A stretch of DNA of 64,000 bases, from the NCBI GenBank assembly GCA_034003985.1, contig JAVEXP010000001.1, positions 155,347 through 219,346 on the forward strand. The letters run 5' to 3'. Position numbers and translations under genes: made by a program. Of this stretch, positions 286 through 53,132 are shown one piece after another. Each line of letters starts with the position of its first letter. Within the stretch, counting starts at the first letter, position 1. Under the pieces are notes generated by a model. That model saw only the letters and a program-made list of their open reading frames with translations. It was not told the DNA's origin and ran no database searches. This stretch comes from Patescibacteria group bacterium. Lineage in GTDB: Bacteria; Patescibacteriota; Patescibacteriia; Buchananbacterales; UBA6539.

Positions 286-848
286 ACTGGTTTTTGACTT
301 TGACTCAAGTAACAAAGCGAGCGACAAGGTGCCTTTGCGAAGGCAGGGAAGAACGGTCGCGATGTGGCGGTCAGAAGTCAGCCAGCTTGTTAGCCGGCAA
401 CAGTGTTTAAGCGCAAGCTTAACCAATCAGAGTCAGCCGGTTGGCATGGCAAAACGAAGCGCAATTAGGAGAACGAACCATGAAAACCTTCGGCGCCGCG
501 GCAAACACCCGCGGCACCCCAACCAACACGGAGGCCGCGATCAATTAGGGCGGCGAGAAGAATATAGGCTAAGTAGACGGCTAGGTCTAACGCTCGCAAG
601 GTGCTGATCCCACCAATGGCCGTTAAGCGTTGCCTGCCCTCCCAGGTGACCAGTTCCTTTTTCATTCCTCAAACGGCGTTAAGCCAGCGCCGCAGTGTTG
701 TCGGCCCGGTGGCTGACAGCAAAGTAGGTAACCACGCAAGGGTATCCCGATTCCGGGTGGGGATACTTAAGACAGTCAGGCCCGGGCTAGCCTGACATTT
801 TTCCCGGCTGAGAGCCTCTTCCCCTCTCAGTTTTTTTTATCCCCAGGA
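286..848 (+). ncRNA. GC-rich structured RNA candidate of about 500-560 nt, unclassified. I considered RNase P RNA and tmRNA but could not confirm either. No credible ORF. It ends in a strong intrinsic terminator.
   Basis: GC is about 55-60% in a roughly 40% GC genome. Only Arg-rich, nonsense-like ORFs overlap it (329-607, 465-665, 601-795). There are many local hairpins, for example gtatccc...gggatac at 742-768 and gtcaggc...gcctgac at 775-797. Putative promoter: TTGTCT at 252-257 and TAAACT at 274-279. Terminator at 808-838. Confidence 0.4.
808..838 (+). terminator. Intrinsic terminator: ctgagag-cctcttccc-ctctcag followed by T8.
   Basis: Perfect 7-bp stem with a 9-nt loop, followed by tttttttt. 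Confidence 0.65.
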
Positions 849-1212: not shown

Positions 1213-1304
1213 TTATGAGGAATCAGATACAAACCACTAATCATCAGCAAATTACCTGGCCAGAGTCGAGGTGATTTGACATTGTTTAATTCAATTTCAG
1301 CTTA

Positions 1305-1328
1305 CCCCGCCTCTGGCGGGATTTTTTG
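1305..1328 (+). terminator. Intrinsic terminator: ccccgcc-tctg-gcggg followed by a T-run.
   Basis: Short GC stem followed by attttttg. Confidence 0.5.
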
Positions 1329-1362
1329 TGGATCTTTTCACTAACCAATGGAGGGCACAAAG

Positions 1363-1722
1363 ATGCCAAAGTATCGATTGGATGAAGACTGGCAGGTTGA
1401 TTTCGGCAAGCTTGGCGGATTGGTGGCGGTAGTCATTCAGGATTGGCGGACCAATCAGGTGCTGCAGCAGGCTTTCATGAATCAGGAAAGCTTTCGGCGC
1501 ACTCTTGCTACCGGTGAGATCTGGCTGTGGTCGCGCTCCCGCCAGAAACTGTGGCACAAGGGCGAAACTAGCGGCAATGTTATGCTCGTCAAGGAGCTTT
1601 GGCTGGATTGCGATGGGGATTGCGTTTTGGCCAAAGTTAAAGTGCTGGGCAATGCCTTGGCCTGCCACGAAGATCGTCGGTCTTGTTTCGCCCGGCGCTT
1701 GAAAAAGCAAACCGGCAAGTAA
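1363..1722 (+). CDS. hisI: Phosphoribosyl-AMP cyclohydrolase (HisI), monofunctional.
   Basis: The motifs GLVAVVIQD, WSRSRQKLWHKGETSGN, DCDGD and ACHEDRRSCF match the HisI family. GGAGGG sits 6 nt upstream of the ATG at 1363. The track's longer start is at 1348. Confidence 0.85.
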   Translation: MPKYRLDEDWQVDFGKLGGLVAVVIQDWRTNQVLQQAFMNQESFRRTLATGEIWLWSRSRQKLWHKGETSGNVMLVKELWLDCDGDCVLAKVKVLGNALACHEDRRSCFARRLKKQTGK

Positions 1723-1845
1723 CTGAGTGCTAGTCACAGCAATTCAATCAGAGCGAGAAGGCTATTGGCTTGACCGACCGTTATCGAGCGTGTTAACTTT
1801 GGTTGAGGCAAAACTTCAACGCGGTGATCCGAAGAGGAGTAAGAT

Positions 1846-19829: not shown

Positions 19830-19924
19830 TTTTTTTATTTTATCAAGATTGACAAAAACCTCTTTTGGGGTTATTTTTTTAGTGGCGAAAAGACATTGGT
19901 TTATAACCATGGAGGGCTATTGCC

Positions 19925-20197
19925 ATGAACTTTGCAATCGGTGTTCACCTGCCTCCCCAAGCGATCGGGATTGATCCTGGTATCCGGACCAGATCCGGAT
20001 ATACGATTGGTCAGGAGGTTATAATCACCTCTGAGGCCTTCACTACCACTTGGAAGTTTGGCCATAATCTGGCCGGACGCAGCGGCCGGGTCGTGGGTTT
20101 TACTCGCGGTGGTGGGGTTGTCCTCGAAGTCGGTGGTGACGGTGAAACCATGATTACCCAGCGGGTCGAATTTCGGCCCAATAGTCGGTTCGCCTAG
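19925..20197 (+). CDS. GC-rich orphan small protein (90 aa, Gly-rich), hypothetical.
   Basis: GGAGGG RBS 9 nt upstream. Putative promoter TTGACA at 19847. Terminator hairpin plus T7 at 20229-20270. About 57% GC against about 40% in the flanks. A minus-strand ORF (19901-20212) overlaps but lacks these signals. Confidence 0.45.
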   Translation: MNFAIGVHLPPQAIGIDPGIRTRSGYTIGQEVIITSEAFTTTWKFGHNLAGRSGRVVGFTRGGGVVLEVGGDGETMITQRVEFRPNSRFA

Positions 20198-20228
20198 GAC
20201 CGGATGGGTCATCTTGATTACCCTTGAA

Positions 20229-20270
20229 TTTACAGTGTCGCTATCTTTGCCGACGGCGACACTATTTTTT
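20229..20270 (+). terminator. Intrinsic terminator: gtgtcgc...gcgacac followed by T7.
   Basis: Inverted repeat followed by tatttttttag. Confidence 0.5.
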
Positions 20271-20345
20271 TAGAAACAATAACTTGCCAAAAAGGCATTT
20301 TTTTGTTTAAATTAGATTGTGTTAGAATGTTGTAAACCCAACTAA

Positions 20346-24827: not shown

Positions 24828-24860
24828 TTTTAGCTAAACTGCCCGGCAGGAGGGTAAGCG

Positions 24861-25037
24861 ATGGGTTCAAATGGCAGCATTTCTACCAATGAGCCATTGG
24901 CAGAGGCTCAGCAGCGAGACGGCTGTTATGCCGTCGGATTGGCCAGGGGCTTATCAGTGGCTGTTTTGATGCAAATTTGGAATGCCAAATCCGAAGATGA
25001 ACGGAGGGCAATATTGGCGAGGTATTCCAAAAGATAG
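24861..25037 (+). CDS. Small hypothetical protein (58 aa) in a GC-rich patch.
   Basis: I read the ORF manually. GGAGGG RBS lies 8 nt upstream of the ATG at 24861. A hairpin plus T-run follows. Not in the track because it is under 60 aa. Confidence 0.35.
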   Translation: MGSNGSISTNEPLAEAQQRDGCYAVGLARGLSVAVLMQIWNAKSEDERRAILARYSKR

Positions 25038-25197
25038 CCAGGAGACTGGCTGGCTCGTTTTGGTTTTTCCCCGCGGTTTTGGCTAAGGGGTCTTTTTTTT
25101 AAAAAAAATGGCGAGGGGCGGCTTGACGCCGATACTCACCTTATTGTCTCAAATCAGTCCAAATAAACCCGTGCTTGGAGTTTATTGTCGCTCCCGC

Positions 25198-25347
25198 CTA
25201 TCTCAGGGGCAAGTTAGCAATGGTCAATCCCATCATTCTGGCAATATCAGACAGATCAAATCCGTTTTCGGGGATTGGCGGTTCCGGCCTGCTGGGCGTG
25301 ACTGATGATGTCGACGGCAGCGGCTTTGGCAGTTGGGCGTTTAACAC
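25198..25347 (-). CDS. Small Pro-rich hypothetical protein (49 aa from a GTG start; the track's longer version begins at 25395).
   Basis: AGGAGG lies 8 nt upstream of GTG at 25347 on the minus strand. Convergent with the 24861 ORF across a T8A8 bidirectional terminator-like tract at 25094-25109. Confidence 0.3.
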   Translation of the reverse strand: MLNAQLPKPLPSTSSVTPSRPEPPIPENGFDLSDIARMMGLTIANLPLR

Positions 25348-25445
25348 AGTCAATTCCTCCTGATTGTTTTTGTTGATTGGTTTGAGTAAATCCACATTAG
25401 TTTAACTGAGGTGGATGAATATCATTATCAGTCAAGGTGATTTCT

Positions 25446-25473
25446 TTGTCAAGAGCGATAATTTTGTTATAAT
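25446..25473 (+). promoter_or_regulatory. Sigma70-like promoter: TTGTCA, 16-nt spacer, TATAAT. The -10 ends 6 nt before the ATG, so the mRNA may be leaderless.
   Basis: ttgtca at 25446-25451 and tataat at 25468-25473. Start codon at 25480. Confidence 0.45.
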
Positions 25474-25479
25474 TTATCT

Positions 25480-38138: not shown

Positions 38139-39371
38139 TCAGAAGTAGAGAGTGAAGCCGGCTGAAAATACATCGACTTCAGTCTCATACCGTCCTGGAG
38201 ACAGGTTGTTGAACGATTGTCCAATTTCCTGTTTGACCCAAGCATGGAGGTATGCTAGGTCAAATGACCAGTTATCCTGATGGTAACCCAGGCCTAGTCC
38301 GACGCAGAATCCCTGGCCGTCAGGGATCACCGGATTGGTGGTGTCGTTGGGTACGGCTGGGCCGAGCCAGCCAACCCCCATCCGACTAGTCAAATGCTCG
38401 TTGAGTTGGCGCTCTATCCCCAGATGAGCGCTGAAAGATTTGTCCCAGTCCAGGCGCTGACGGATGGTTGGCAGCTTTCCGAAATCGAAGTCGATTCGGT
38501 CAGTCTGGCTATAGTCAAACCAGTTGACATCGAAAGCCACCAAATATTCGTTGTTGGGCTGCCAGGCAAATCCCAAACCCAATCGTGCCGGAAAGGTGAC
38601 ATCGGCGTCGAAGCCGTCGCGCCCCAGATTCAGTCCTGCCAACGAGATGTCGGTGTGACCTTTGAGGGCAATTTTCATCCGTGAGGAATAGCTCAGGGCC
38701 AATGCCAGGCGTTCATCGGGTTGCCAACGAATACCCAGACGATAACCCCAACCAAATCCGTCGCCTTCAGTCACTAAATCGGTGAGATCCAGTCTGACGC
38801 CGCCAATCTGGTGCAGGGGTGTGTGGTAGAGCAATTGGCCATAGCCAAGGTCTAATCCCACCCCGATACTCAGAGTGTCGGTGAGTTCATAGCTGAATCC
38901 ACCGGTGAGGTTGACTACGGCCAGCAGACTTTGGCGGTAGTTAAGACCCGGGTAGCGGTTGTTCGGGTATTTGACGCCCAAGCCATAGGGAGCGTATATT
39001 CCCGCTCCCAGTACCAGCCTGTCGGACAGGCGGGTGGCACCGGCTACTAGCGGCATAGTGAATAGCTGATCTTCCGACTGTTCTTCGAATCCGCCCCAGC
39101 TATCCGGCAGACGGTATTCAAAGTCGGGTGAAATGAAGTCGCCCGAAATTTGCAGGAAAGAGCCATCAACCTGGCTTAATCCCGCAATGTTGTGGTACAG
39201 TGCCGAGCCGTCGGAAGCTACGGCATTGTGGGCACCAGACATGCCCAGAGCTCTGGGGGTAAGGCTGGCGCCGGGACGGATAACACCACCACCAAACGCC
39301 GTCTGACCACAAAGTACTACCACCGCTAAGCAAGCCGCCCACTTAATATTCATCAGGTTCCTCCTTATCAT
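38139..39371 (-). CDS. FadL/OmpP1/TodX-family outer-membrane beta-barrel, a hydrophobic-compound transport protein. GC-rich.
   Basis: Signal peptide. N-terminal hatch motif ...ASDGSALYHNIAGL matches the FadL NPA(G)L region. Alternating amphipathic strands. The C-terminus ends ...GFTLYF (terminal Phe). About 56% GC. Confidence 0.7.
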   Translation of the reverse strand: MIRRNLMNIKWAACLAVVVLCGQTAFGGGVIRPGASLTPRALGMSGAHNAVASDGSALYHNIAGLSQVDGSFLQISGDFISPDFEYRLPDSWGGFEEQSEDQLFTMPLVAGATRLSDRLVLGAGIYAPYGLGVKYPNNRYPGLNYRQSLLAVVNLTGGFSYELTDTLSIGVGLDLGYGQLLYHTPLHQIGGVRLDLTDLVTEGDGFGWGYRLGIRWQPDERLALALSYSSRMKIALKGHTDISLAGLNLGRDGFDADVTFPARLGLGFAWQPNNEYLVAFDVNWFDYSQTDRIDFDFGKLPTIRQRLDWDKSFSAHLGIERQLNEHLTSRMGVGWLGPAVPNDTTNPVIPDGQGFCVGLGLGYHQDNWSFDLAYLHAWVKQEIGQSFNNLSPGRYETEVDVFSAGFTLYF

Positions 39372-39552
39372 CTTGTGTGCTTAACACGGGTTTCTGTTTT
39401 TACGGCTTTTTAAATTACCACATTTAAGTAAAAAAGTCAATATTGTATATTTTATAATTGACTTTTTTGTTGTATTATGATATTAATAAGAGTTGTCCTT
39501 TTAATTGGGTATAAGTGAATCCAACCGTGCTAAACACGAAAGGGTTAGGGCT

Positions 39553-40530
39553 ATGAGTATGTCAACGATTTTGGCAGTACCTACGGTCGAGGTGGCAGTT
39601 GACCCGGAGATTCCGGATGTCACAATCACAATGGTCGAGCAGTGTCGGCCGATCTCCACCTACACCTACGAGAGGTTGCGTTGGCTCTATGTGCTGACAT
39701 TTCCTCTCTCGGTTGCCCTAACCTTGTGGGTTATGGGCAAGAAGTTTTTGTGTTTGGCATTGGGTCGTCCAATGCCAAGAATCAACACCATCTTTTTTGA
39801 TGGTTTGGGGGAGGAGTGCCGCCAGATCAAGATGGGCGAGGCCTCGTGGAAAGCCCTGCATGTCATCTATAACCATGTTTTTAAGTGGGGATGGCGGGTC
39901 GACACTTTCGTTGACAATTATTGGATCGGCATGGTCAATGCACAAGCGGTGCGTAACCGCTTCAAGTTGGTCAAGCAGGAGATCCGGCGGGCCATCATGT
40001 CGGTCTACGACGGAGCGGAAGTAAGAATTATGTCCCTGGCCTGCGGTTCGGCCCAAGCTATCATTGAAGTGATGGCCGAAATGAAACAGAAAGGGATCGT
40101 GGTTCGGGCAATGCTGGTCGACAAGGACCAGGACGCGCTTGACTATGCGATGCAACTTGCCAATGAGCATGGTTTGCAAGATCGTGTCAGCGTCGTTTGC
40201 GATACCGTCTCAAATGTCGAGTTCTTGGCAGCTGACTTTCGGCCTCAGATCATTGAGATGCTGGGGCTGCTGGACTACCTGCATCAGCTCAAAGCCATTG
40301 ATCTGGCTGCCAAGATCTATCGGTCGCTGCCCGACAAAGGCTGGTTTCTCACCTGTAACATTGCCCATAACTTCGAGATGTGGTTCCTGCGGTGGGTAAT
40401 TAACTGGCCGATGATCTATCGGACGCCTCGGCAGTTGGCGGAAGTGGTGCTCAAAGCCGGCTTTGCCGATTGTCGGCTGATTTACGAGCCCCATCGAGTC
40501 CACGGATTGGTAGTCACCCAGAAGGTGTAA
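39553..40530 (+). CDS. Membrane-associated class I SAM-dependent methyltransferase-like protein. GC-rich.
   Basis: Motif I LACGSAQ, acidic post-I LVDKD, motif II VVCDTV, and one predicted TM helix near the N-terminus. Start taken at the ATG at 39553 preceded by AAAGGG. Confidence 0.5.
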   Translation: MSMSTILAVPTVEVAVDPEIPDVTITMVEQCRPISTYTYERLRWLYVLTFPLSVALTLWVMGKKFLCLALGRPMPRINTIFFDGLGEECRQIKMGEASWKALHVIYNHVFKWGWRVDTFVDNYWIGMVNAQAVRNRFKLVKQEIRRAIMSVYDGAEVRIMSLACGSAQAIIEVMAEMKQKGIVVRAMLVDKDQDALDYAMQLANEHGLQDRVSVVCDTVSNVEFLAADFRPQIIEMLGLLDYLHQLKAIDLAAKIYRSLPDKGWFLTCNIAHNFEMWFLRWVINWPMIYRTPRQLAEVVLKAGFADCRLIYEPHRVHGLVVTQKV

Positions 40531-48062: not shown

Positions 48063-49181
48063 ATGTATAATTCCTGGGTGGAAATTTCCCGGTCGGCGAT
48101 TATCCATAATTTAGCGCAGTATCAGCGGTTAGTTGGTTCGGAAGTAGCGGTAATGCCAATAGTAAAAAGCAATGCTTATGGCCATGGTATGGCGGAAATC
48201 GCCAGGCTGGTAGCGCCGCGGGTTAAGTGGTTGGGAGTTGTCAGTTTGGGTGAAGCTTTGGAATTAAGAAGGCTGGGAATCAAACGGAGGATTTTTGTTT
48301 TAAGCTATGTTTCCCAACAGTATTTATCAGCAGGAATCAAACAGAGAATTGATTTGCCTATTTATGATTTGGAATCGGCTAAATTAATCAATGCTGTTGC
48401 CGGCAGACTTAAGATTAAGGCGCGCCTTCACATCAAAGTGGATACCGGTGCAACCAGGGTTGGAATTTTGACATCGCAAGTTGGCGGTTTTGTCCAACAG
48501 CTCACCACCCTGCCAAATTTAAAGATGGAGGGAATTTACAGTCATTTTGCGGCCAGCGAAGAAAATCAGAAATATACCGGACTCCAGCTTAAAAGATTTC
48601 AGCAAGTCTTAGCTGATTTAAAGATAGAAATTCCGACAAGGCATTTTGCTTGTTCAGCCGCAATTTTGGTTGAACCGAAAGCTCATTTTAATCTGATTAG
48701 ACTGGGTTTGGGATTGTATGGTTTGTGGCCATCTGAGCTGGTTAGAAATTTAGCCCAAAAGAAATATCCTGGGTTTGAGTTAAAGCCAGCCTTAACTTGG
48801 AAGACTACAATTATTCAAGTTAAAACTATTTCGGCCAAAACTAAGATTGGTTATGGTTGCAGTTATACCGCCAAGACCAAAATGAAAATTGCTGTCATTG
48901 CGGTTGGCTATTGGGAAGGCTATGATAGACATTTGAGTAATAAAACGGAAGTCTTAGTTGGTAATAAGCGTTGTCCGTTGGTTGGTCGAATTTGCATGAA
49001 TATTTCGATGATTGATGTAAGTAAAGTTAGAGATGTTAAGGTTGGCCAGGAGGTGGTGTTGCTGGGTAAACAAGGGAGAGAGGAAATAACAGCGGAAGAA
49101 TTAGCTGGAAGAATTGGTACGATTAATTATGAGCTGGTGACCAGGATTAACCCAATACTGGAACGCCGATATTTAGATTAA
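48063..49181 (+). CDS. alr: Alanine racemase.
   Basis: PLP-Lys motif VMPIVKSNAYGHG and a C-terminal beta domain. Confidence 0.9.
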   Translation: MYNSWVEISRSAIIHNLAQYQRLVGSEVAVMPIVKSNAYGHGMAEIARLVAPRVKWLGVVSLGEALELRRLGIKRRIFVLSYVSQQYLSAGIKQRIDLPIYDLESAKLINAVAGRLKIKARLHIKVDTGATRVGILTSQVGGFVQQLTTLPNLKMEGIYSHFAASEENQKYTGLQLKRFQQVLADLKIEIPTRHFACSAAILVEPKAHFNLIRLGLGLYGLWPSELVRNLAQKKYPGFELKPALTWKTTIIQVKTISAKTKIGYGCSYTAKTKMKIAVIAVGYWEGYDRHLSNKTEVLVGNKRCPLVGRICMNISMIDVSKVRDVKVGQEVVLLGKQGREEITAEELAGRIGTINYELVTRINPILERRYLD

Positions 49182-49184
49182 AAA

Positions 49185-49385
49185 AGACCCCACCAAACCG
49201 AGCCATTCCCTCTCCATGGTGGAGTAGGAACAGCAAGGTGGTCTGGTGGGGCTGGGGAAGGTTATCGGTAGCTGTTCCAGGGAGGTCCGGTACGCCGACC
49301 GGGATCCTGAGTGCTTGTAGGTGCTGCGCACCAATCCGCTGCGTTTTGGAACTCTCAGGCTTTTCCTCGTTCTACCGATGACAAA
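49185..49385 (-). ncRNA. GC-rich small RNA candidate of about 200 nt with its own promoter and intrinsic terminator. Unclassified; 6S-like size and architecture.
   Basis: Minus-strand promoter TTGACT (complement of 49414-49419), 18-nt spacer, TAAGAT (complement of 49390-49395). Minus-strand terminal helix ccccaccagacc...ggtttggtgggg followed by tcttttt ending at about 49181. About 58% GC. The 5' segment AUCGGUAG pairs with the 3'-proximal CUACCGAU. The only ORF is a low-complexity 81-aa reading frame. Confidence 0.45.
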
Positions 49386-49432
49386 AACAATCTTAGAAGA
49401 TTTATTAGGATAAGTCAATAAATTATTAAAAA

Positions 49433-50578
49433 ATGTCTAAAATTAGCAGAAAAATTAAGGTCGGAGTGATTTTTGGCGGCCGGAGCGGAGAACACGAGGT
49501 CTCAATTGTTTCAGCTCAATCGGTGATGAAAGAATTAGCCAAGAAGGGCTATGACATTATGCCTATTGGTATTACCAAAGAAGGTAAATGGGTAGCTGGC
49601 GCCGAGGCAGTTAGATTTCTTAAGGACGGCATCAAGCGCTTACCTTTTAAATCTGTATTATTGCCCGATCCAACCCAAAAAGGCTTGGTAAAAATCGGAG
49701 AGCGGGGGATAGTTAATGTTAAATCAAATCAACCTGGCCGATTAGATGTGATATTCCCTTTGATCCATGGCAGCTATGGCGAAGATGGTAAACTCCAGGG
49801 TTTGTTGGAAATGGCTGATTTGCCTTATGTCGGTGCTGGTGTTTTGGGTTCGGCGTTGGGAATGGATAAGGTAGTTCAAAAACAGTTGACTGATCGGGCG
49901 GGGATTCGCAGTGTTGAATATGATTGGGTTATGAATAAAGACTGGCAAAAAAATCGTGAACAGACATTGAAACGGCTGATGAAAAAATTAAGATATCCAA
50001 TTTTTACCAAACCGGCCAACTCAGGATCCAGCGTCGGCATCAATAAATGTCATAATCAACGGGAGCTAATCAATGGGATCAACGAGGCGCTAAAGTATGA
50101 TCACAAAGTGATTATTGAGCAGGGCATTGAAGATATCAGGGAAATTGAAGTGGCGGTGTTGGGCAACGATGACCCTAAGGCGTCGGTTCCGGGGGAAATC
50201 GTGGCCTCCAATGAATTTTATGATTATGACGCCAAATATATTGATGGCAAGTCTCAGGCAATTATTCCCGCCAAATTGCCAAAATCGGTAGTTGCTAAAA
50301 TCCAAAGATTGGCAGTCTCGGCTTTCAGGGCTTTAAATTTATCCGGAATGGCTAGGGTTGATTTCATGGTCAGGAAGAAAGATGGCCGGGTTTATCTGAA
50401 CGAAGTCAATACAATTCCGGGATTTACTTCAATTTCTATGTACCCGAAATTATGGGAGGCCTCCGGTTTGAATTACACCGATTTACTTGATCAGCTGATA
50501 AAACTGGCAATGGCAAAGCATCAAGAAAAAAATGAACTGCTGACCAGTTATCAACCCAAAGATGATTGGTATAAATAG
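49433..50578 (+). CDS. ddl: D-alanine--D-alanine ligase.
   Basis: KVGVIFGGRSGEHEVSIVSA and ATP-grasp motifs. Confidence 0.9.
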   Translation: MSKISRKIKVGVIFGGRSGEHEVSIVSAQSVMKELAKKGYDIMPIGITKEGKWVAGAEAVRFLKDGIKRLPFKSVLLPDPTQKGLVKIGERGIVNVKSNQPGRLDVIFPLIHGSYGEDGKLQGLLEMADLPYVGAGVLGSALGMDKVVQKQLTDRAGIRSVEYDWVMNKDWQKNREQTLKRLMKKLRYPIFTKPANSGSSVGINKCHNQRELINGINEALKYDHKVIIEQGIEDIREIEVAVLGNDDPKASVPGEIVASNEFYDYDAKYIDGKSQAIIPAKLPKSVVAKIQRLAVSAFRALNLSGMARVDFMVRKKDGRVYLNEVNTIPGFTSISMYPKLWEASGLNYTDLLDQLIKLAMAKHQEKNELLTSYQPKDDWYK

Positions 50579-52317: not shown

Positions 52318-52723
52318 ATCTGCTCAGTATTAAATAAGAGTTATGTGTCGTAAAATATTATAGAAACATTTGGCAGGGCAGGGAAGAGGAGATTGAATGA
52401 TTAAGATAATTGATTGATATAATTTTTTATTTTGATGATATTTGATAGATCTATCAAATATTTTTTTAATTTAATTATCTAGTTGGATGTCCATCATTGT
52501 CCAAAAGAAATTTATTTTTAATATTTTTAGATTGAATATTTAATTCCACGGAATTTTGTTTCTTTTTAGAGCCATTGGAGTAACTTGATTGGCTCTTTGC
52601 TGCTATTTGTGGATAAGTTATTAAATATGTAGTGTCGTATAAGATATATTGTGCGACACTACATATTTAATAAAACAGCCTTAAATAATAATTAAAATTC
52701 ATCCCCTCGCTCAACGGCGAGTT

Positions 52724-52752
52724 GACAACCTGGGTAATAAGATATAAAGTTT
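52724..52752 (+). promoter_or_regulatory. Candidate sigma70-like promoter (TTGACA ... TATAAA or TAAAGT) driving the small-peptide transcript.
   Basis: ttgaca at 52724-52729, with -10 candidates 15-17 nt downstream. Confidence 0.35.
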
Positions 52753-52836
52753 ATTGTCGGGAACATTAAAAATATTTTGTCCTTCCCTATTTGACGGTTA
52801 TTCTTGAAGATTGCCAGCAGATACGGGAGGGCAAAA

Positions 52837-52878
52837 ATGCATATCTTGCAGTTGCCAGGCCTGGTCGACCTGTGCTAA
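52837..52878 (+). CDS. 13-codon upstream ORF (MHILQLPGLVDLC) with a near-perfect Shine-Dalgarno site.
   Basis: GGGAGGG lies 6 nt upstream of the ATG at 52837. The stop TAA is at 52876-52878. Confidence 0.3.
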   Translation: MHILQLPGLVDLC

Positions 52879-52897
52879 ATGCCACTCCTATTAATTC

Positions 52898-53074
52898 ATG
52901 AGCTTTAGGCTTATGTACCACGCAATCAAAACCGGAGTGACATTAGCCGTCGGCTTAGCCGTACTGCAGATGTTCCTCCCTGATGTGGGATCCAAGTTAG
53001 TTGAGTTAATCACTACGGTGATTGACATTATGCTGGTTACCATCAACCAAGCGTCGACTAACTTACCCTCATAG
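52898..53074 (+). CDS. Small hydrophobic peptide (58 aa, two predicted TM segments): MSFRLMYHAIKTGVTLAVGLAVLQMFLPDVGSKLVELITTVIDIMLVTINQASTNLPS.
   Basis: I read the ORF manually; it is under 60 aa. It lies 20 nt after the 13-codon uORF. It is followed by the terminator hairpin ggccctagg...cctgggcc plus a T-rich run at about 53075-53115. Confidence 0.35.
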   Translation: MSFRLMYHAIKTGVTLAVGLAVLQMFLPDVGSKLVELITTVIDIMLVTINQASTNLPS

Positions 53075-53132
53075 ACGACATAAGGCCCTAGGATACTCTC
53101 CTGGGCCTTTTCCTTTGTCTTTGAATATTAGT

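Follow-up and report, generated by a model that had tools for sequence, protein, structure and literature searches.

What occupies the 251-nt spacer between alr and ddl in the genome of a member of Candidatus Buchananbacteria (Patescibacteria)? The spacer lies within the 64-kb stretch of DNA analysed here, hereafter the window, and it is the site of a predicted small RNA (sRNA) gene on the minus strand, between the genes for alanine racemase (alr) and D-Ala-D-Ala ligase (ddl); ftsQ is the next gene after ddl. Protein searches with Ddl and Alr gave metagenome-assembled genomes of Buchananbacteria or Patescibacteria as the closest relatives of the window. An earlier reading of this DNA, made from its letters alone and referred to below as the sequence-only reading, had proposed a promoter-to-terminator non-coding RNA gene convergent with alr and had likened it to 6S RNA. 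We find that this observation is largely right and that the "6S-like" label is wrong: the element is a narrowly distributed orphan, a stand-alone sRNA gene. The reading that we favour, and to which we give about an even chance, is that of a lineage-specific, independently transcribed and structured non-coding RNA of ~200 nt, carried as an accessory cassette in a variable alr-ddl site and acting through its fold.

The predicted gene begins at a promoter with the hexamers TTGACT and TAAGAT, which had been named correctly before, although the spacer between them is 17 nt and not the 18 nt then given. In a scan of 1 kb, matches to the promoter consensus were no more frequent than chance would give (2 found vs 2.1 expected), which alone is not significant. 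Across the window, 10 of the 15 perfect TTGAC[AT]-N16-18-TAnnnT sites are intergenic, with intergenic DNA making up ~6% of the sequence. The RNA gene is also present, at the same place, in one distinct relative, L081 (GCA_030154545.1; Alr 88% and partial Ddl 93% identical), where the hexamers read TTAACT and TAAAAT at unchanged spacing. Given that this motif class is enriched between genes and that TTGACA-N17-TAnnnT occurs at this place, likewise oriented, in the cassettes of 9 other distinct relatives described below, we conclude that the sRNA gene has a near-consensus sigma-70 promoter of its own, TTGACT-17-TAAGAT, of predicted activity. An independent Logan assembly, L112, carries a sequence identical to that of the window, and the locus is therefore no assembly artefact. 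Searches with the Ddl and Alr proteins for closer relatives returned only L081 and the identical L112, the next ones being at most 73% identical.

The transcript predicted from this promoter (Table 1) has a computed length of 202 nt and a GC content of 0.57-0.58 against a window mean of 0.42, in agreement with the earlier estimate of about 200 nt and 58%. It overlaps no coding sequence except the stop codon of alr, and its 5′ end falls 51 nt short of the start of ddl. When folded as a minus-strand RNA of 205 nt, the sequence reached a minimum free energy (MFE) of -82.8 kcal/mol, compared to -64.5 +/- 4.7 kcal/mol for 200 dinucleotide shuffles (z = -3.9), none of which was as good, whereas the plus strand gave z = -1.6 with 7 of 200 shuffles equally stable. 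Four G-U pairs of the predicted minus-strand fold become A-C mismatches if the sequence is read on the plus strand. We assigned the gene to the minus strand because of the U-tract at its end, these G-U pairs and the two z-scores, and the same features bear out the proposal of a promoter-to-terminator non-coding RNA gene on that strand, convergent with alr.

Two domains make up the predicted fold. The 5′ domain is closed by the 8-bp helix P1, in which AUCGGUAG pairs with CUACCGAU and which appears in the MFE, centroid and two-sequence consensus folds. This pairing had been noted before as one between the 5′ and the 3′-proximal sequence; the helix stands, but its second strand is not 3′-proximal, as 80 more nt follow CUACCGAU. 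Nucleotides 1-30 of the predicted RNA pair with nucleotides 100-125 and reach the last 60 nt with a summed probability of only 0.0035, so the long, imperfect, rod-like helix of the sequence-only reading is not what the computed fold contains. Within the 5′ domain, two complementary hexamers would form a duplex of -6.3 kcal/mol, and a pseudoknot between them is speculative. A single-stranded linker, whose portion CUUCCCCA has an unpaired probability above 0.7, leads from this domain to an extended hairpin, the putative terminator. The basal stem of the hairpin comprises 13 pairs (11 Watson-Crick and 2 G-U) and is followed by C-UUUUUU; a terminal hairpin with a U-tract had thus been seen rightly, whereas its details had been given as a 12-bp helix plus UCUUUUU. 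Being nearly palindromic, the hairpin can be formed by the plus strand as well.

Table 1. Positions of the predicted sRNA gene, its parts and its neighbours in the window, and of cassettes at related loci (L-numbers precede positions within those loci).
Feature	Position	Strand	Remarks
alr (alanine racemase)	48063-49181	+	Pfam Ala_racemase_N E 1e-58, Ala_racemase_C E 3e-45; convergent with the sRNA gene
C + U6 tract	49180-49186	-	Overlaps the alr stop codon TAA (49179-49181)
Extended terminator hairpin	49187-49252	-	66 nt; 13-bp basal stem plus inner stem-loop
Single-stranded linker AACCUUCCCCA	49253-49263	-	11 nt; joins the two domains; invariant in L081
5′ domain	49264-49379	-	116 nt; three-way junction closed by P1
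P1	49379-49372 with 49271-49264	-	8 bp
Short arm of 5′ domain		-	GAGG/CCUC-type helix; predicted fold
Long arm of 5′ domain	49359-49306	-	Tipped by GGUGC-GCA-GCACC hairpin; predicted fold
Hairpin arm of 5′ domain	49302-49287	-	CCGGU-CGGCGU-ACCGG; predicted fold
Possible pseudoknot	49347-49352 with 49274-49279	-	GUUCCA with UGGAAC; 6 complementary bases, both invariant in L081
Predicted transcript	49181-49382	-	~202 nt; 5′ end placed at G49382 (8 nt past -10), 3′ end in U-tract 49180-49185
Promoter -10 hexamer TAAGAT	49390-49395	-	17-nt spacer to -35
Promoter -35 hexamer TTGACT	49413-49418	-	14 nt from ddl ATG (other strand)
ddl (D-Ala-D-Ala ligase)	49433-50578	+	Pfam Dala_Dala_lig_N, Dala_Dala_lig_C; divergent from the sRNA promoter
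alr-ddl inserts	L003:3702-4000; L082:1389-2489; L085:2882-3727; L094:1826-2366		Minus-strand promoter next to ddl start
alr-ddl inserts	L088:1522-2272 (= L110:1756-2500); L097:3107-3417; L099:4129-4658; L100:4114-5008		Behind minus-strand promoter
serS-alr cassettes	L107:992-1361; L083:2582-3000; L085:1331-1732		Antisense-oriented promoter-body-terminator

Does the predicted RNA, or its complement, encode a protein? On the minus strand, an 81-codon frame spans promoter and terminator alike, meets an in-frame TGA in L081, shows 8 nonsynonymous to 1 synonymous changes, and has neither a Pfam match nor a protein homologue among 5.8 billion sequences. A 47-codon frame on the plus strand (49238-49381) is open in both the window and L081, with an AGGA or AGGGA motif ~9 nt upstream of a start codon that is GTG in the former and ATG in the latter. 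These features, along with the hairpin that also forms there, would suit a functional element of the plus strand, which might be a structured part of the alr-ddl mRNA (leader or intercistronic) or else an open reading frame (ORF) paired with the antisense RNA in the manner of a type I toxin-antitoxin system. Within the frame, though, 3 nonsynonymous stand against 1 synonymous change, and the synonymous rate (dS) is as low as the nonsynonymous rate (dN). Since synonymous sites are constrained like the rest, selection would seem to act on the nucleotide sequence and not on a protein, and the change from GTG to ATG is explained just as well as one side of the compensatory C-G to U-A change. We rejected the toxin-antitoxin candidate on these counts and on the peptide itself, which is not a hydrophobic helix. 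An mRNA element is in turn opposed by the weak plus-strand fold, by the A-C mismatches into which the G-U pairs and the one-sided changes described below would turn, and by the lack of a match to any Rfam cis-regulatory family, and we regard a plus-strand function of either kind as very improbable. The sequence-only reading had found no credible ORF; with no homologue, the stop codon in L081 and no protein-level constraint in any frame, we likewise conclude from these comparisons that the predicted RNA is non-coding.

Over 200 nt, the RNA differs from that of L081 by 11 substitutions (5.5%) and one indel in the U-tract, and the 5′ domain together with the linker differs by only 4 substitutions in 127 nt (3.1%), all four at predicted unpaired positions of the long arm. 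Fourfold-degenerate sites differ at 34% in alr, 41% in ddl and 20% in serS, or 108 of 347 in total (31%), and in the promoter and the DNA upstream of it, 52 nt in all, 23% of positions differ. In Fisher tests against the neutral sites, divergence was reduced in the RNA as a whole (p = 1e-13), in the 5′ domain plus linker (p = 1e-12) and in the hairpin (p = 5e-4), while the promoter region was not distinguishable from them (p = 0.26). The RNA is thus constrained and the promoter region near-neutral, and therefore the zone of constraint coincides with the predicted transcript. We conclude that the predicted RNA is under purifying selection, evolving ~6x more slowly than neutral sites as judged from the one orthologue compared.

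The putative terminator hairpin has changed faster than the 5′ domain, with 7 substitutions of which 5 fall in paired columns and 2 in unpaired ones. All 5 paired-column changes keep the pairing, one pair having changed on both sides (C-G to U-A) and three on one side through G-U; over the whole RNA, the remaining 7 changes fall in unpaired columns. These pair-preserving changes lend the predicted fold weak support, as the structure was derived from the same two sequences. Faster change that preserves pairing is also what would be expected of a terminator or stabiliser, and we propose that the main task of the 3′ hairpin is to end transcription and to make the RNA more stable. The working parts would then be the invariant helices and junction of the 5′ domain and the invariant C-rich single-stranded linker, with which the RNA may bind a protein or a second RNA and so act in trans.

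We next consider whether the RNA belongs to a known family. It belongs to no Rfam family: nothing in the window reached gathering score in Rfam 15, and relaxing the threshold to E<=10 for positions 49100-49500 brought only two chance microRNA (miRNA) matches, both on the hairpin. ARAGORN found no tRNA or transfer-messenger RNA (tmRNA) in the window or in 13 related loci, which disposes of a tmRNA or tRNA-like molecule. In AT-rich genomes, housekeeping RNAs are typically GC-enriched and of such a size (~200 nt), and a highly diverged 6S, signal recognition particle (SRP), RNase P or tmRNA could in that respect be hidden here. The likeness to 6S RNA (RF00013 and related models) extends to a stand-alone gene with its own promoter and to GC-richness relative to the genome; in contrast, the candidate is a three-way-junction domain plus a separate hairpin, with no end-to-end closing stem, central bubble or apical stem and no covariance-model match. 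Its distribution is equally unlike that of 6S RNA, as it is missing from the fetched loci of all relatives beyond the closest one, although alr and ddl are retained. The sequence-only reading had named absence of the RNA beside conserved flanking genes as evidence against its proposal, and such absence is what we found, as regards a conserved housekeeping RNA; the resemblance to 6S falls with it, and the other families that it had listed for a covariance-model search fared no better. Its exclusion of SRP RNA holds, with no Rfam SRP match at E<=10 and no domain IV-type helix in the fold. RNase P RNA was considered on account of a GAGGAAA motif: GAGGAAAAGCC loosely resembles GAGGAAAGUCC, which we take to be the CR-I motif of RNase P and which served as a lead only. 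There is no Rfam match to RNase P RNA, and GAGGAAAAGCC lacks a complementary GGCUUU, the P4 partner, before the 3′ strand of P1. A housekeeping RNA would also be expected in relatives with Ddl at most 73% identical, from whose fetched loci this RNA is absent, and we consider the idea effectively refuted, the least probable of all those weighed here.

Other regulatory classes share single traits with the candidate. Like a terminator-type riboswitch, or an antisense RNA controlled by one, it has a folded 5′ domain, a short linker and a terminator hairpin, and read-through would be antisense to alr; unlike these, it has no downstream gene on its strand and no match to an Rfam aptamer. A riboswitch or antiterminator was rejected, given that the sole alternative pairing amounts to 6 bp (UUGGUG with CACCAG) against a hairpin of about -44 kcal/mol, and is weakened in L081. 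A further likeness is to the Rsa-type sRNAs of Staphylococcus aureus, which bear unpaired UCCC motifs of a kind that usually targets Shine-Dalgarno (SD) sequences. As in those Gram-positive sRNAs, we see a sigma-70 promoter, a candidate intrinsic terminator, stable stem-loops, an unpaired conserved C-rich CUUCCCCA and a lineage-restricted distribution, with no similarity to them in sequence or model. Most genes in the window have no SD motif, which weakens the idea of an anti-SD mimic.

Among the loci searched, the RNA proved to be confined to the window, L081 and the identical L112. BLAST, nhmmer and covariance-model searches of the fetched loci did not find it in 35 other related loci, nhmmer and blastn had no match in 80 Ddl-anchored genome loci, and a covariance model (R1) of the window and L081 copies, run over 37 sources (268 kb), returned only these two inputs and their palindromic hairpin. 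It is therefore absent from relatives with Alr or Ddl at most 73% identical, which have kept alr and ddl themselves. At ~70% identity an RNA that evolves so slowly should still be recognisable; it is absent there, which is more in keeping with replacement than with divergence. Bodies can indeed persist over such distances, as L086 and L088 (Alr 75% identical) still share a recognisable 3′ part of their cassette.

What the relatives have instead differs from lineage to lineage, with an alr-ddl gap that ranges from -16 to 1101 nt. In one group alr abuts or nearly abuts ddl (-16 to 49 nt; L001/L093, L002/L095, L005, L046, L076, L087, L101, L102/L103, L107), and in another 284-1101 nt lie between them (L003, L008/L096, L082, L085, L088/L110, L091/L092, L094, L097, L099, L100, L105). 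A minus-strand TTGAC(A/T)-N17-18-TAnnnT promoter is found in 11 distinct long gaps, counting the window and L081 (the latter with TTAACT), and lies within ~30 nt of the ddl start in all of the cassettes but that of L100; the gaps of L008 and L105 contain ORFs instead and no such minus-strand promoter. In most promoter-bearing gaps the alr end, or DNA close to it, has a hairpin and T-run. Most bodies are GC-rich and many fold well, with mononucleotide-shuffle z-scores of -2 to -6 for L082, L085 and L088, and they are unrelated to one another beyond the promoter-proximal 40-60 nt; the gap of L082 holds two promoter-body units in tandem. Rfam searches of 26 related loci, all long alr-ddl gaps included, gave only chance miRNA-type matches. 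Antisense-oriented cassettes of the same build also occur between serS and alr (Table 1), and in L108 and L109 serS is followed directly by ddl with no alr, so the whole serS-alr-ddl stretch is variable.

Such a site could also be read as a recombination hotspot in which foreign GC-rich DNA, or a former small-ORF cassette, sits without function behind a resident promoter. The range of gap lengths with mutually unrelated GC-rich bodies and the patchy distribution in relatives would fit a decaying or selfish remnant of this sort, as would the coding content of the other cassettes. Transcripts of 10 of the 15 cassettes begin with an SD-like motif (AAGGAGG/GGAGGG-type) and an ATG that opens an ORF of 5-63 codons (L003, L085, L088, L089, L091, L097, L099, L100, L083 and the serS-alr cassette of L085), the product in L091 being an arginine-rich protein of 63 residues, while the window RNA has only GAGGAAAAG, with no start codon and no such ORF. 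The sole motif shared among cassettes is the SD-like AAGGAGG, mildly enriched (7 of 15, shuffle maximum 6) and absent from the window RNA; 'CATGGAGGGC' recurs in L088, L099 and at window position 19849. A functionless remnant is hard to square with purifying selection that is strong and begins and ends with the transcript, with a fold far more stable than those of shuffled sequences, or with substitutions that preserve structure. The RNA also had no match by blastn against phage and plasmid collections or, for two 19-mers, in viral contigs. We think it unlikely that the window RNA is such debris. Variable intergenic islets with sRNA or small-ORF genes between conserved core genes are a general bacterial phenomenon, and the alr-ddl site resembles them in its conserved flanking genes, lineage-specific content and units that each have their own promoter and terminator; it differs in that an outward-facing promoter stays fixed next to the ddl start while bodies of 200-1100 nt are replaced, and in that the loci examined contain no integrase, transposase or repeats.

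A fixed promoter with an exchangeable body is, in turn, what would be seen if transcription itself mattered more than its product. The convergent promoter and RNA could act in cis to uncouple or throttle ddl (and ftsQ) from alr read-through, by collision of RNA polymerases and by a 200-bp duplex with the alr-ddl mRNA that RNase III could cleave. In cassette-free relatives the two genes touch or overlap, an arrangement suggestive of an operon, and the plus strand between them in the window has no terminator, the hairpin being followed by no U-tract on that strand, and no sigma-70-like promoter was found upstream of ddl. Across distant relatives, moreover, it is the outward-facing promoter by the ddl ATG that is conserved and not the transcribed body. 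What interference leaves unexplained is the body of the window RNA, which evolves about sixfold below neutral sites and its own promoter although complementarity in cis survives any mutation; so strong a constraint on sequence, which covers the linker and the unpaired strands of the junction as well, suggests that the folded RNA has a function of its own. The pairing-preserving changes in the hairpin are also left without a cause, neither GC enrichment nor a multi-branched fold would be needed, and only the alr stop codon is overlapped, the RNA ending before the ddl start. As a primary function, cis-antisense action or interference ranks second to a trans-acting folded RNA, and we judge it doubtful, if somewhat less so than a remnant.

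With a trans-acting folded RNA as the preferred reading, an effect on the neighbours would remain as a secondary consequence. Minus-strand transcription would collide with read-through from alr to ddl, to which the RNA is fully complementary, and because there is no plus-strand terminator after alr and no detected ddl promoter, convergent transcription and the 200-bp duplex would probably affect ddl too. An antisense effect on alr-to-ddl read-through is thus likely, as a side effect.

Several results weigh against the trans-acting RNA. A simple terminator scan left the hairpin uncalled, since its stem contains internal loops, and the call comes from the fold and a direct reading of the sequence. 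The complement of the C-rich linker showed no enrichment in the window, and no target or partner protein was found. Covariation, a check that the sequence-only reading had suggested, was not significant, the observed score being reached by 243 of 500 shuffles; with no more than two distinct sequences to compare, the analysis has no statistical power, and the 5′-domain helices, being invariant between the two, draw no covariation support. At the level of the clade the RNA is dispensable, for relatives have an abutting alr-ddl pair or other cassettes. Finally, a recently transferred cassette would in principle also show low divergence, with no need for selection, an idea against which stands the adjoining promoter, diverged at a near-neutral rate.

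Taken more broadly, the cassettes may form an undescribed accessory system, with the window RNA as one of its alleles, in which fixed sites between the housekeeping genes serS, alr and ddl keep an outward-facing consensus promoter. What lineages would exchange behind it are unrelated RNAs, strongly folded and GC-rich, that measure 200-1100 nt and in some cases include SD-led mini-ORFs. We offer this as a tentative proposal that is rather unlikely to hold. If true, turnover of this kind in streamlined genomes would suggest that wholly new RNA classes serve functions exposed to diversifying pressure, host or phage interaction for instance.

The window has further features of note. Its genome suggests leaderless or very short-leader mRNAs, as judged from TATAAT-like hexamers 5-9 nt upstream of several ATG codons (e.g. 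25480, 59163, 62650, 5711), and most operon-internal genes have no SD motif. The stretch 19830-20345 has a plus-strand ORF of ~90 codons (GC 0.55, no Pfam match) whose ATG is preceded by ACCATGGAGGGC and, at 19849, by a TTGACA-17-TATTTT promoter; a 103-codon minus-strand ORF at 19901-20212 is probably the shadow of this ORF. A 652-nt gap at 24828-25479 contains a plus-strand, SD-led ORF of ~60 codons (GGAGGGTAAGCGATG) whose end is marked by a hairpin near 25080-25110 with T8 on one side and A8 on the other; the hairpin looks like a bidirectional terminator, and a second GC-rich stretch past it may be read from the minus strand. Positions 300-2750, at the left end, are GC-rich (0.50-0.56) and include hisG (1846-2751), a Trp-repressor-like gene (910-1212) and ORFs of mixed strands with no Pfam match at 329-607 (+) and 1297-1737 (-); this may be an acquired or non-coding stretch. 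At 38139-40530, a minus-strand gene for a FadL/TodX-family outer-membrane transporter (Pfam E 7e-44, GC 0.55) adjoins a methyltransferase gene (GC 0.52), and in a contig of 42% GC the transporter gene looks horizontally acquired and is unexpected for the phylum. An 815-nt AT-rich gap (52318-53132, GC 0.36), where gene orientation turns from plus to minus, has a plus-strand TTGACA-17-TAAAGT at 52722.

Genomes of Patescibacteria are very small, and to our knowledge almost no regulatory RNAs have been described in them; our search of the literature found no description of RNAs such as this one in the phylum. A non-coding gene of ~200 nt that evolves ~6x more slowly than neutral sites is thus a concrete and testable candidate for a regulatory RNA in Patescibacteria. 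The wider pattern may outweigh the single RNA, in that a consensus promoter is retained at the alr-ddl and serS-alr sites and the GC-rich bodies behind it differ completely by lineage. If those bodies are non-functional, the window RNA would be an ordinary orphan sRNA of narrow distribution; if they are functional, an uncultivated phylum would gain several RNA classes that are new, along with a variable locus of a new kind.

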